A stretch of 64,000 bases of DNA from Escherichia coli (GCF_013122565.1 NZ_CP053258.1), one strand, 5' to 3'. Positions 55,396-64,000 are shown, counted from the first letter of the stretch. A program made the numbers and translations. The notes: generated by a model not told the origin, from the letters alone.

Positions 55396-55475
55396 GTTGC
55401 CTGAAATTTATGCCTTTTAAAATCATGATGTTAGAAGCACTGTTTTTTAACGATGGCGACAAAATGGCGGCAGCG

Positions 55476-55727
55476 TCAAAGAGAGAGCGCCACCTGTCCT
55501 GATTTCATTGGATGCGGCTGAACCGGATTTGACTCTTTTGGCGTTGCAATCGAACGAACAAAAGTTTCATGGGTAACAAAAGTATGGCTGCAGTTAATGT
55601 TCTGGCACTGGTTGTAACGCTCTTTGGTCAATGAAGATACCTGAAAACTGCTGCGAGTATGGGCGGCACTTCCACACAGTGGGCAAATCATCATTTTTCG
55701 AGTTCTCCCCATTTTTGCTAAATTCAC
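55476..55727 (-). CDS. ogr: Ogr/Delta-family zinc-finger late-gene activator (83 aa)
   Basis: CPLCGSAAHTRSS...ERYNQCQNINCSHTF four-Cys motif as in P2 Ogr. Confidence 0.88.
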   Translation of the reverse strand: MNLAKMGRTRKMMICPLCGSAAHTRSSFQVSSLTKERYNQCQNINCSHTFVTHETFVRSIATPKESNPVQPHPMKSGQVALSL

Positions 55728-55784
55728 AATAATGATACCGCATTATTCCATTTTGCAAACTTAAAAGTTCTCCATTGCGAAGAA

Positions 55785-56885
55785 TCATTCCATTTCGAAA
55801 TCATCAATCCTCACTTCGAGCTCCAGACTGGTTGTAAAACCGTTATCGGGGCTGACGGTATGCGTCAGAGTCGTAATGGTCCATTCCGCATCATCTATCG
55901 GCTGTTTAAAGCCACTGACCTTCACAGGCATTTCTGTGTAGAGATCTGCCCGCCCTTCCGCCAGTTGTAGCGAGAATGATGCAACGCCGCGTTGCAGGCG
56001 TTCCCACTGCATTTTCGCTGCCCGTTCAGCGTTGCTCCGGTTGGCATAAGTGCGATTAAGTACCAGCACGTTTTCATCCGTACCCACCAGGTAATCGCCC
56101 TGCTTCGCTTCCGGCTCTTTCTTCTGCTTTGCGGTCCTGCGCTTACGCTTCACCGTGGTGCTTTCTTTCTTCGCGGGTTCGCGGGTATGCAACCAACTGG
56201 CAATTACGCCCGTATAGGCTCCGCGATCTGCCAGGGTAAAGCGGTGACTGTCGCCGTCCTTGCGTGTGATAGTGATCACCGGCAGAGGTTTACCGCTGGC
56301 GCTTTTGCCCTGTCCCTGCCGGATGAATAACAGATTGCCATTTTTCACCGACGCAATAGCACCGTACTGGCGCGCCAGCCGCATCAGAAAACTGCCGTCA
56401 CTCTCATTGGTCTGGTCTATATGTTCCACGGGCTTATCCGACAGGTCTTTACCCAGTGCCATCTTCAGCTTGTGCCGCGCGGCTATTTCCTTCACCACTT
56501 CCCCGACAGTGGTCTTGTGCCACGATTTTTCACGGCGGGTATTCAGCGTTTCCCTAAAATCAGCACTTCGCGCCCGGATAGTCAGGCGATCCGGTGCGCC
56601 AGTGTGTTCAATCTCGTCCACCGTGAATGCCCCTTTCGGGAAAAGCGGCTGCCCCTTCCAGCCCAGCGCCAGCGTGATGACCGCACCACGGCGCGGCAGC
56701 ACGATTTTTCCGTCGGCGTCGTCCAGCTCCAGATCAAGCTGGTCTGCTTCAAAGCCCCGATTGTCCGTCAACGTCAGACTCATCAGGCGGTTATCCAGCA
56801 CAGTGGTGATATCCTTCCCCTCAATACTGATGCTGAATGCGGGAGTTTTGTTGCATTTGTTAAGCAGTTCAGAGCTGAAATTCAC
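55785..56885 (-). CDS. P2 gpD-like tail protein (366 aa)
   Basis: Strong similarity to P2 gpD as recalled (ISLTLTDNRGFEADQLDLELDD, RGAYTGV, VKVSGFK). Confidence 0.88.
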   Translation of the reverse strand: MNFSSELLNKCNKTPAFSISIEGKDITTVLDNRLMSLTLTDNRGFEADQLDLELDDADGKIVLPRRGAVITLALGWKGQPLFPKGAFTVDEIEHTGAPDRLTIRARSADFRETLNTRREKSWHKTTVGEVVKEIAARHKLKMALGKDLSDKPVEHIDQTNESDGSFLMRLARQYGAIASVKNGNLLFIRQGQGKSASGKPLPVITITRKDGDSHRFTLADRGAYTGVIASWLHTREPAKKESTTVKRKRRTAKQKKEPEAKQGDYLVGTDENVLVLNRTYANRSNAERAAKMQWERLQRGVASFSLQLAEGRADLYTEMPVKVSGFKQPIDDAEWTITTLTHTVSPDNGFTTSLELEVRIDDFEME

Positions 56886-57367
56886 GACAGCAGCCCTCCC
56901 ACCGTTTTACTGATATCGCTTAAGGCAGACGTTGCCGTATCCTGCAAATTATTCAGTTGAGTACTGAGATCACCGAACATATCGGACAGGGATTCATCCA
57001 CCCGTTTGAGCGACAGGGTAAACTCAATCCGGCGCGGCATACCATCGCGGAAAAACTCCGTTTTAGTCTGATTCAGTCCCTCAATCACATACATGCCGTA
57101 AATCGTGCCGCTGCCTTCAATCAGGGGCCATGCTTTTCCCTGTTCTGCCATCTGCTCCAGAGCCAGCAACGACAGCCTGCCGCCCGTTATCTCCGGCATA
57201 AGAACACCAGAAAGCGTCAGCATGTCGTTGTCCGGTCCCAGAAACTGCGTGGACGGACGACGGTTTACCCGGCTGTTTGCCGCATGTCGCCAGCTGCGTT
57301 GATACTGCAGTTCCTGATACGGAACGGTGCGCAGCATAAACGCGTACAATCCCAGCACCATCATCAT
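56882..57367 (-). CDS. P2 gpU-like tail protein (161 aa)
   Basis: Position between D and T plus P2 gpU-like sequence. Confidence 0.85.
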   Translation of the reverse strand: MMMVLGLYAFMLRTVPYQELQYQRSWRHAANSRVNRRPSTQFLGPDNDMLTLSGVLMPEITGGRLSLLALEQMAEQGKAWPLIEGSGTIYGMYVIEGLNQTKTEFFRDGMPRRIEFTLSLKRVDESLSDMFGDLSTQLNNLQDTATSALSDISKTVGGLLS

Positions 57368-62764: not shown

Positions 62765-63336
62765 TCAGGGCGATTCATTGTTCTCATTCGCCAGAAATTT
62801 TCTATAAATGGTAGAAACGCCCACATCAAAAATCAGTGCAATACGCTGTCTTGATTCTCCGGCCTCGAGTAAACGTCCAATCTGTGCCCACTGTTCGGTA
62901 GTCAACTTAGGACGGCGTCCACCTACTCTGCCTTTAGCACGAGCTGCAGCCAGCCCTTCCCTGGTACGTTCAACTATCAGTTCGCGTTCCATTTCAGCCA
63001 GGGCACCCATGACATGAAAAAAGAAACGGCCCATTGGGGTACTGGTATCAATACTGTCAGTCAGACTTCTGAAATTCACGCCGCGCTGGCGCAACTCTTC
63101 TATCAGAGTAACAAGATGCGCATACTGCGCCCCAACCTGTCCAGCTTCCAGACAACCAGTGTGTCACCTGCCGATAGTGTCCTGAGCAGCTTTTTCAGCC
63201 CTGGTCTGTCGGACTTGGTGCCACTGATTTTATCCTCAAAAATCCGCTCACATCCCGCGCAGTTCAGTGCATTACGTTGCAAATCGGTGTTCTGGTCATT
63301 TGTTGACACGCGTACATAGCCAATAAGCATGATCAT
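62765..63336 (-). pseudogene. Serine DNA invertase (Hin/Gin/Pin family) interrupted by a frameshift
   Basis: ORF 63103..63336 gives the catalytic N-terminus (GYVRVSTNDQ, VWKLDRLGRS); ORF 62765..63094 gives the rest (GVNFRSLTDSIDTSTPMGRFFFHVMGALAEMERELIVERT) in another frame; restoring one c in atgcgc-atc near 63108 would join them. Confidence 0.8.
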
Positions 63337-63357
63337 CCCTCTGAATAAAAACCGGAG

Positions 63358-63756
63358 ATGATGCCAGTTAGCCGTAATCTCTGCATTTTCATAAACGTTG
63401 GTTTGGGAGAAGCGGCGAAAAGGGATGTGGGCACAGGAGATAATCAGATACCGGATATGGGAGCATTCGCTTCTGGTTCGGGATGGTTCAGGCTACCAGG
63501 TGGATATATTGTTCAGTTTGGCACTTTTTCAGGAAACACGACCCGCTTTATCAGTGGACACTTCCCTATACCATTCCCTAATCAGCCGATGGTTTCAGTC
63601 AGTGTTATGTCTGATGCCGTTCAGTCAGACCCGTCGATTCCTGCCCCGCAGGTTTTGTCTGTAAATTTTGAACATATCAGTAATTCAGCGTGGCGTGTGG
63701 CAACCAGTGATATCTCACAGCAATACAGATTCAGTTATATTTCGATAGGACGGTAG
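63358..63756 (+). CDS. Putative tail-fibre variable C-terminal segment in the non-expressed orientation (132 aa ORF)
   Basis: ORF reads through the crossover site and away from the tail operon; tail-fibre-tip-like sequence; position mirrors the Mu G-segment Sv' arrangement. Confidence 0.5.
   Translation: MMPVSRNLCIFINVGLGEAAKRDVGTGDNQIPDMGAFASGSGWFRLPGGYIVQFGTFSGNTTRFISGHFPIPFPNQPMVSVSVMSDAVQSDPSIPAPQVLSVNFEHISNSAWRVATSDISQQYRFSYISIGR
63385..63410. promoter_or_regulatory. Invertase crossover site (gix/hix-like, 26 bp)
   Basis: Reverse complement TTCTCCCAAACCAACGTTTATGAAAA fits the TTC-N4-AAACC-NN-GGTTT-N-GA-AA pattern of hix/gix sites with one core mismatch. Confidence 0.65.
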
Positions 63757-63758
63757 AA

Positions 63759-64000
63759 ATGCAGAAATATATTTTCAGTGCCGATAAAAATGCGTTTTTC
63801 CCTGTGGAGCTTAAAATCGCTTATCAGGAATCCGGCGAATGGCCCGATGATGGAATCGAAATTGACGACACTGTTGCCGCCGAATTTATGAAGGAAGCAC
63901 CAGAAGGAAAATACAGAGGTGTCATCGACGGAATGCCTGCATGGATTGATATTCCACCGCCAACTCATGAGGAACAAATTGCCGCAGCCGAATTGGAAAA
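63759..64000 (+). CDS. Putative tail-fibre assembly protein, partial (runs off window end)
   Basis: ATG at 63759, MQKYIFSADKNAFFPVELKIAYQESGEWPDDGIEIDDTVAAEFMKEAPEGKYRGVIDGMPAWIDIPPPTHEEQIAAAELE, open to window edge. Confidence 0.55.
   Translation, partial: MQKYIFSADKNAFFPVELKIAYQESGEWPDDGIEIDDTVAAEFMKEAPEGKYRGVIDGMPAWIDIPPPTHEEQIAAAELE

Follow-up and report, generated by a model that had tools for sequence, protein, structure and literature searches.

The rybB junction

The window, i.e. the whole 64,000-nt stretch of Escherichia coli DNA that was analysed, passes from chromosomal into phage-specific DNA at the 3′ end of a small-RNA gene. The boundary features are:

55320–55398, plus strand, rybB small-RNA gene, intact (Rfam RF00110, 104 bits against a gathering score of 40, full model 1–79)
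55385–55398, no strand assigned, position of the att core (3′ stem and U-tract of the rybB terminator)

Up to 55398 rybB has the K-12 sequence, save an A to G change at 55385. Similarity to K-12 ends at the att core and phage-specific DNA follows from ∼55399/55400; because K-12 similarity ends at ∼55399, this is a real prophage/chromosome junction. An earlier note on this DNA had the prophage region start at 55396, which falls at the rybB 3′ end. The 14-bp sequence ATGGGTTTTTTGTT is found at both prophage ends in E. coli PK8568, and the att core in the window is GTGGGTTTTTTGTT. rybB is the chromosomal target of the prophage, with attR at the rybB terminator, and the stop codon of ogr is 77 nt from the junction. 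rybB is a documented site and hotspot for P2-like/Felsduovirus prophages (PMC10121019; PMC3032704). Integrated examples include Rybb*W, Rybb*B, and Rybb*Cr of strains W, B, and Crooks, and the site is hotspot #29 of Hochhauser et al. 2023 (PMC10121019; PMC3032704). At this hotspot the prophage ends on its right side at the junction in the window, with rybB itself left intact.

The best overall identity of the chromosomal part was 97.8%, low enough at first sight to suggest a host other than E. coli. That reading was set aside, as the figure had been lowered by two small islands and a more divergent stretch of art genes (96.3%), and the 4 kb adjoining the prophage are 99.2% identical to K-12. 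No Rfam family other than RybB was found in 55000–64000.

The tail operon and ogr

Seven genes, all on the minus strand and without internal stop codons, occupy 55476–62622:

55476–55694, minus strand, ogr, late-gene activator of 72 aa with a C4 zinc finger (Pfam Ogr_Delta, 6.7e-22)
55785–56885, minus strand, D, tail/baseplate hub, 366 aa (Pfam Phage_GPD; PHROG 52, tail)
56882–57367, minus strand, U, tail protein, 161 aa (Pfam Phage_P2_GpU, 3.8e-44)
57364–60441, minus strand, T, tape measure, 1025 aa (Pfam PhageMin_Tail; PHROG 28, tape measure)
60434–60870, minus strand, E (100 aa, 60568–60870) and the E′ frame (60434–60553), tail assembly chaperones (Pfam Phage_TAC_7; the E′ frame matches PHROG 6416)
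60613–60607, minus strand, slippery heptamer T_TTT_TTG in X_XXY_YYZ register
60925–61440, minus strand, FII, tail tube, 171 aa (Pfam Phage_tube, 8.8e-60)
61450–62622, minus strand, FI, tail sheath, 390 aa (three Pfam sheath domains)

In BLASTP comparisons the seven products were 44–67% identical to their P2 counterparts (E-values 3e-26 to 0), and they also match PHROG tail and regulator families. Identity to P2 is 51% for Ogr, in which the CxxC...CxxxxC pattern is preserved with all four cysteines, 55% for D, 47% for U, 53% for FII, and 67% for FI. Against Escherichia phage Cartapus the values are 98% for D (equal length) and U, 98.9% for T (equal length), 100% for FII, and 99.2% for FI. Ogr departs from this pattern, being 100% identical to Ogr of the PK8568 prophage, 67% to that of Cartapus, and 68% to that of Fels-2. 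T is 88% identical to T of PK8568, and a 442-nt segment within it (59900–60341) is a mosaic patch whose DNA aligns to Cartapus, not to PK8568. For the six tail genes dN/dS relative to Cartapus is ∼0.05, i.e. the differences are almost all synonymous.

The colinearity with P2 described in the earlier note was confirmed when the ORF map and Pfam matches were set against the annotated P2 genome: the order is FI-FII-E-E′-T-U-D-ogr followed by the att site. Its description of the genes as full length holds relative to Cartapus and PK8568, where each orthologue has the same length, but not relative to P2, compared with which T is longer by 210 aa (1025 against 815), D shorter by 21 aa, and E longer by 9 aa. 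We likewise found no cargo gene between ogr and FI, where intergenic gaps measure 54–126 nt and the overlapping plus-strand ORFs are without Pfam matches. A search for hidden opposite-strand genes in the tail operon covered ten plus-strand ORFs of 130–262 aa and returned no Pfam match.

The slippery site of E/E′, which had been called conserved, lies near the end of E and is indeed the P2 heptamer, in the same register as at the annotated P2 site. A programmed −1 frameshift at T_TTT_TTG would yield an E+E′ fusion of 145 aa, close in size to the 142 aa of P2 E+E′; the two align end to end with 47% identity over 139 aa. In relatives, the E′ frame shows the Pfam domain Phage_P2_GpE.

Two promoter-like elements accompany the operon:

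55732–55759, minus strand, sigma-70-like promoter in the D-ogr gap, TTTGCA-16-TATCAT (consensus match only)
62699–62716, minus strand, TGT-N12-ACA dyad, candidate Ogr site of the F-operon late promoter, TGTGTGAATAACGACACA

The P2 annotation has −35/−10 signals in the same D-ogr gap. The dyad is perfect, and its centre lies ∼85 nt upstream of the FI ATG, against ∼83 nt for the annotated activator site of P2 pF. Cartapus keeps both the TGT and ACA arms, and its spacer differs at two bases. Judged by motif and position, the dyad is likely to be the Ogr-binding site of the F late promoter. By analogy with P2 and 186, the late promoters, among them that of the F late operon (FI, FII, E and E+E′, T, U, and D), would be activated by Ogr once the prophage is induced, and the seven products of this operon would build a contractile tail.

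The invertase pseudogene and the fibre cassette

The DNA upstream of FI, up to the end of the window, holds the following features:

62765–63330, minus strand, pseudogene of a Gin/Cin/Pin-type serine DNA invertase (Pfam, and alignment to the intact PK8568 gene)
63386–63411, no strand assigned, gix-like 26-bp crossover site, right boundary of an invertible fibre segment, TTTTCATAAACGTTGGTTTGGGAGAA
63386–63756, plus strand, silent alternative C-terminal cassette of the tail-fibre gene H (Pfam Gp53-like_C; PHROG tail fibre)
63759–64000, plus strand, alternative tail-fibre assembly gene, first 80 codons, cut by the window end (PHROG 188, tail fiber assembly, 1.4e-27)

The earlier note had singled out the invertase as the damaged gene, and the lesion could be located precisely. 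Codon 71 has lost one base, between 63120 and 63119, which converts ATGCGGCAT to ATGCGCAT and splits the gene; the missing base is a single G of a GG pair, and the alignment to the intact PK8568 invertase contains this one gap only. Two ORFs result, one of 77 aa with the N-terminal part of the Pfam Resolvase domain and one of 109 aa with the C-terminal part and HTH_7. A Din-family invertase has an intact catalytic domain and HTH_7 within ∼190 aa; here, the N-terminus with Ser9 is cut off from the remaining catalytic domain and the HTH. For the intact invertase of the relative, the match to Mu Gin (3UJ3) has an E-value of 7.9e-93.

Loss of a single G from a GG pair is the kind of change that might stem from sequencing or assembly, in which case the invertase would be intact and fibre switching would work, and of 621 complete E. 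coli genomes that have this part of the gene, none showed the deletion. Against this stands the presence of the same deletion in two independently assembled public read sets from Logan, SRR11451224 and SRR29598430, in both of which the invertase is called as two ORFs. SRR11451224 matches the window at 100% identity across 11,867 bases, and SRR29598430 differs from it at 2 of 3,694 bases, and so represents separate data. We therefore regard an artefact as highly unlikely and treat the deletion as real. IMG/VR gave no match to a 43-mer placed across the frameshift. The exact FI protein was found on only two Logan contigs, both of which stop in the invertase/crossover region; one of them breaks off within the conserved 5′ part of the invertase gene, which hints at a repeat there.

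The crossover site has a homologue in PK8568 with an inverted partner in gene H, 1.8 kb away. The window holds one crossover site together with the silent cassette, and the partner would fall in gene H, past the window end. When the site was compared with the Mu G-segment locus, its best match fell exactly on both gix sites with 17 of 26 positions identical; this score is not above those of shuffled sites within 6 kb (mean 16, maximum 18), and its value lies in the exact position on both gix sites. The silent cassette is open across the crossover site in the same frame as in PK8568 H (codon position 2 in both, from coordinates). Exact matches to the 99-aa silent fibre cassette occur in other strains only, and relatives have a 146-aa Caudo_TAP gene at the position of the alternative fibre-assembly gene.

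The predicted layout is shared with the Mu G segment and Gin, and also with the P1 C segment and Cin and the e14 P segment and Pin: fibre gene, assembly gene, inverted assembly gene, inverted fibre C-terminus, and invertase. The 26-bp crossover site ∼56 nt from the invertase start codon is common to Mu and the element in the window. The differences are that the cassette here sits in a P2-family genome and that the invertase is frameshifted. A Mu-G-segment-like cassette and a Gin-like invertase fill the slot upstream of FI, between G and FI, in which P2 carries the moron Z/fun.

Since the one-base deletion inactivates the invertase, the phage is probably restricted to the tail-fibre type of one orientation, barring another invertase acting in trans. 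No second invertase was found in the window; that a Din-type enzyme encoded elsewhere in the genome still flips the cassette in trans is improbable. As a lineage-specific pseudogene, the invertase should lock the fibre type and hence the host range of the phage. Such invertases are dispensable for phage growth, as in Mu and P1, and the lesion alone therefore does not leave the prophage defective. The private frameshift is evidence that decay has started in at least one gene, a non-essential one.

Placement among P2-family phages

Taken together, the region from ∼55399 to 64000 is best read as the right arm, next to ogr and attR, of a P2-family prophage that belongs to the 186/Fels-2/Cartapus type and sits at the rybB 3′ end of an E. 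coli chromosome. To this reading we assign a probability of about 0.9, and no feature of the window speaks against it. The arm is of a known, ordinary kind with nothing unusual about it. The statement that only the right arm is visible is borne out; head, lysis, replication, immunity, and integrase genes would fall past base 64000. The label “P2-like” that had been attached to it is correct at the family level (Peduoviridae); the element is much nearer the 186/Fels-2/Cartapus branch than P2.

This is seen in the protein identities, which range over 44–67% for P2, 68–95% for Fels-2, and 98–100% for Cartapus with the exception of Ogr (67%). At the DNA level the arm is 96% identical to Cartapus (Elveevirus) and 74–81% to Fels-2, both values referring to the 8.6-kb arm. 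In ICTV practice, placement in a genus calls for genome-wide nucleotide identity of at least 70% with one of its members.

Cartapus (Escherichia phage, Peduoviridae, Elveevirus, NC_070909) has D, U, T, E/E′, FII, FI, and the invertase in the same order and with the same lengths; its DNA matches at 96% over 7.9 kb, its six tail proteins are 98–100% identical, and it shares the layout of the invertible fibre cassette and the pF region. It differs in having an intact invertase, an Ogr of only 67% identity, and, between ogr and int, two added genes (a putative exonuclease and a RES-domain protein); in the window, ogr directly adjoins the att junction. The rybB-integrated E. coli prophages, such as that of PK8568, have the same rybB-terminator site, gene order, and an identical Ogr, and match at 96–98% DNA identity outside the 442-nt T patch; the element in the window is set apart from them by the Cartapus-type patch at 59900–60341 and by the private 1-nt invertase deletion. 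Fels-2 (Salmonella phage, Felsduovirus, NC_010463) has the same arm architecture, including an invertase beside FI, but is clearly farther away than Cartapus, with tail proteins at 77–95%, Ogr at 68%, DNA at 74–81%, a T of 935 aa against 1025, and another host and attachment site. With P2 (NC_001895) the element shares the order from FI to ogr and att, the T_TTT_TTG site, the geometry of the late-promoter dyad, and a separate promoter in the D-ogr gap. Unlike it, P2 integrates elsewhere, has a T of 815 aa, shows only 44–67% protein identity, and has C/Cox-type immunity, while close relatives of the element in the window have 186-type CI/CII/Fil/DinI-like genes. Within the 186/Fels-2/Cartapus branch, close relatives of the element carry SOS-type (CI/CII/DinI-like) control genes.

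Phages of this kind are mosaic, and in the arm Ogr and one patch of T differ in their closest relatives. At least 80% of the tail arm was present in about 870 of 5,426 complete E. coli genomes; none of those searched exceeded ∼98% identity over the arm. An exact 35-mer from the window end had no match among species-representative genomes. The element is of low importance beyond its correct annotation, and the defence/cargo hotspots of the rybB phage group, on which present interest centres, are positioned outside the window.

Completeness of the prophage

Going by base rates, it is quite likely that the remainder of the prophage, past the window, is present and complete. The 21.9-kb stretch from ogr to the portal gene was found in 899 complete E. 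coli genomes, as against the 870 with the tail arm, which suggests that in complete E. coli genomes the tail arm is nearly always accompanied by head and lysis genes. In full-length relatives at rybB the baseplate, lysis, head, terminase, replication, CI/CII, and integrase genes are all present. The earlier note's suggestion of an active or recently acquired prophage may be right; the two genome counts back it indirectly, as do the low dN/dS of the tail genes relative to Cartapus and the presence of the ogr promoter-like site and the late-promoter motif.

The element could instead be a defective, partly deleted remnant with an intact tail arm in which essential head, replication, or integration genes are missing or broken and no phage is made. 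The inactivating invertase mutation is private to the lineage and shows that this copy accumulates mutations, partial copies exist in some complete genomes (e.g. 47% and 19% coverage), and the tape-measure gene is split in one relative. P2-type remnants are also well known in E. coli; at cyaR, K-12 itself retains one consisting of ogr-D′ (table in PMC3032704). On the other hand, all seven visible essential genes are intact and the control elements conserved, the broken invertase is a non-essential gene, and the genome counts given above speak for a tail arm that comes with head and lysis genes. We consider a remnant unlikely on balance, and a complete prophage remains our preferred reading.

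R-type tailocins descend from P2-type tails, and a domesticated tailocin, in which a P2-type phage has lost all but its tail and lysis genes and serves to kill competitors, would fit a window that shows tail genes and the late activator only. We find this hardly credible, as no tailocin-specific feature was seen in the window and the arm DNA is 96–98% identical to complete prophages and to one sequenced phage genome. It is also very improbable that only the tail arm survives, with the lysis genes, in a P2/186-type prophage that is becoming tailocin-like and whose fibre type has been fixed by the private frameshift. A further point against a tailocin is the location of the arm at the phage group's own att site, directly adjoining the att core.

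Insertion site and boundary

The prophage arm begins beside rybB, which in K-12 sits between ybjL and rcdA. Identity between K-12 and the window extends to ~55399, with unrelated sequence beyond. E. coli PK8568 carries a full-length related prophage of 34 kb at rybB, and there the last 14 bp of the rybB terminator, ATGGGTTTTTTGTT, recur on the integrase side of the prophage, adjoining rcdA. The boundary proposed in an earlier note from the sequence, 55396, is thus essentially the attR junction, and rybB is left intact. The site is already known from the literature: the paper on the E. 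coli W genome lists three prophages of P2 type (Rybb*W, Rybb*B, Rybb*Cr) under 'rybB ncRNA' (PMC3032704), and Hochhauser et al. 2023 report hotspot #29 in rybB, with Felsduovirus-type prophages only, in 109 genomes (PMC10121019). At 55385, the first base of the 14-bp att core as defined in PK8568, the window carries an A->G change on the 3' side of the rybB terminator stem, so that a U-A pair becomes U.G; the equivalent base is A in both K-12 and PK8568. The G may have been brought in with the phage attP, or it may show where the att core ends.

Features of the prophage arm and its border (window coordinates)
55320-55398, full-length RybB gene (Rfam, 104 bits)
55476-62622, minus strand, seven closely spaced ORFs (ORF map), as follows
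ogr, minus strand, Pfam Ogr_Delta, 72 aa counted from the relatives' ATG
D, minus strand, Pfam Phage_GPD, 366 aa
U, minus strand, Pfam Phage_P2_GpU, 161 aa
T, minus strand, Pfam PhageMin_Tail, 1025 aa
E, minus strand, Pfam Phage_TAC_7, 100 aa
FII, minus strand, Pfam Phage_tube, 171 aa
FI, minus strand, three Pfam sheath domains, 390 aa
55759-55732, sigma-70-like promoter, TTTGCA-16-TATCAT (sequence match), D-ogr gap
60434-60553, E', short out-of-frame ORF, also picked up by PHROGs
60613-60607, slippery heptamer T_TTT_TTG
62716-62699, perfect TGT-N12-ACA dyad upstream of FI
63386-63411, 26-bp gix-like site adjoining the invertase

Tail genes and their control

PHROGs families (tail, tape-measure, sheath, regulator) agree with Pfam. 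The seven products share 44-67% identity with their P2 namesakes (NC_001895) and follow the identical order in the annotated P2 genome. All seven genes are free of internal stops and have exactly the lengths of their orthologues in the PK8568 prophage and in the sequenced Escherichia phage Cartapus (Peduoviridae, Elveevirus; NC_070909). Lengths, order and the lack of stops confirm that ogr, D, U, T, E/E', FII and FI are full length by the measure of these relatives and colinear with P2. Ogr matches its PK8568 counterpart at 100% identity, and the other six proteins are 98-100% identical to those of Cartapus. Between the six tail genes and their Cartapus orthologues there are 157.5 synonymous changes (dS 0.10) and 26.5 that are non-synonymous; the dN/dS of 0.05 indicates that the module is held under strong purifying selection. 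Decayed copies of the related prophage also exist at this site, since in L008, a related E. coli prophage (GCA_900507265.1), the tape-measure gene is broken into 347-aa and 648-aa ORFs at 3911-6984.

The slippery site in E, also noted earlier as conserved, matches the heptamer of the annotated P2 frameshift site exactly; it is in X_XXY_YYZ register and lies 12 codons ahead of the E stop. The predicted -1 shift product, E+E', has 145 aa and is 47% identical to P2 E+E' across 139 residues. The dyad is centred ~85 nt from the FI ATG, compared with ~83 nt for the annotated activator site of P2 pF; Cartapus shares its TGT and ACA arms, but its spacer differs at two bases. The sigma-70-like promoter occupies the same gap as the P2 ogr promoter. 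By analogy with established P2 behaviour, we infer that frameshifting would occur at E and that Ogr would bind the dyad.

Broken invertase and fibre cassette

Between FI and the window end lies a serine invertase of Gin/Cin/Pin type, broken into ORFs of 77 and 109 aa. Its intact PK8568 counterpart matches Mu Gin (PDB 3UJ3; E = 8e-93), and in alignment the window has lost one base, ATGCGGCAT -> ATGCGCAT, between 63120 and 63119 at codon 71. The split ORFs and the one-base gap bear out the earlier remark that the invertase is not intact. The deletion is present in Logan assemblies of two public read sets, SRR11451224 (11,867 bases 100% identical to the window) and SRR29598430 (2 mismatches in 3,694 bases), and gene calling splits the invertase in both; the deletion is not an artefact of the window's own assembly. 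None of the 621 complete E. coli genomes containing the segment has the deletion, the best matches differing by exactly the one-base gap. Because two Logan assemblies share the deletion and no complete genome does, the frameshift is a real, rare, lineage-specific lesion.

The best match of the gix-like site within the Mu G-segment locus is exactly gixL and gixR, and in PK8568 its inverted partner lies 1.8 kb off, inside gene H. The crossover site is spanned by an open ORF for a Gp53-like fibre C-terminus, behind which a fibre-assembly gene begins; the two are directed away from the late operon. Together they form the silent half of a tail-fibre cassette of the invertible kind, in a layout shared with Mu. 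Since the invertase is broken, the cassette is presumably locked, barring another invertase in trans; the 64-kb window holds no second one. The Logan contigs end at 63316 (SRR11451224), within the conserved 5' end of the pseudogene, and at 63412 (SRR29598430), at the crossover-site edge. These ends suggest repeats elsewhere in both genomes, for example another Din-type invertase or an inverted partner site, which, if present, would bear on inversion in trans.

Phage group, cargo and completeness

In DNA, the arm shares 96% identity with Cartapus across 7.9 kb and 96-98% with many E. coli prophages at rybB, compared with 74-81% for Fels-2 (NC_010463) and patchy similarity of 68-71% for P2. The arm is a mosaic: ogr sides with PK8568 and not Cartapus, whereas T bases 59900-60341 side with Cartapus (T identity 98.9%, versus 88.1% to PK8568). 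This patch of 442 nt has no blastn-level alignment to the otherwise closest prophages (PK8568 and the related E. coli prophages L006-L008) and leaves the length of T unaltered. Full-length relatives encode CI, CII, Fil, a DinI-like gene, dam, A and a tyrosine integrase, a gene set that makes their control 186/Fels-2 style rather than P2 style. The element is of an ordinary, well-documented kind, a prophage from the 186/Fels-2/Cartapus branch of the Peduoviridae at a known site, with only two individual features, the private invertase frameshift and the mosaic tape-measure patch.

As proposed earlier, the ogr-FI interval is free of cargo: intergenic gaps of 54-126 nt hold no extra gene, and on the opposite strand of the tail operon Pfam matches none of ten ORFs of 130-262 aa. 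Two genes separate ogr from the att junction in Cartapus, but none in the window, and P2 has Z/fun in the slot held here by the invertase system. The slot after the portal gene is one defence cargo position in this phage group. In PK8568 it holds three genes annotated as an 'ABC-three component system' (43204-46155 of L001, its prophage locus), past the section with homology to the window; in the source strain the slot lies past the window end.

The best identity of the arm in complete E. coli genomes is ~98%. At least 80% of the 8.6-kb arm is present in 870 of these genomes; for the 21.9 kb that run from ogr to the portal gene in PK8568, coverage of at least 80% is reached in 899. Partial copies are confined to a thin band of the genome ranking. 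From these counts and the thinness of that band, we put the probability that a full-length prophage continues past base 64000 at about 0.75-0.8, a base rate taken from other genomes. A truncated remnant is unlikely on the same basis, and a tailocin-like derivative is more improbable still. The earlier observation of an intact P2-like tail module is confirmed; its interpretation is reasonable and partly supported.

Other islands in the window

Compared with PK8568, the window has two insertions. One of 2.5 kb, between the ybjQ and ybjP regions (33022-35576), codes for a pentapeptide-repeat protein of 366 aa, overlapped by a 239-aa ORF that matches no Pfam family. The other, of 3.5 kb between artJ and rlmC (40226-43735), codes for a sulfatase (493 aa) and a PTS EIIC-GAT permease (447 aa); the segment containing it, 40000-55400, is at least 80% covered in only ~566 of 5,426 complete E. 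coli genomes.
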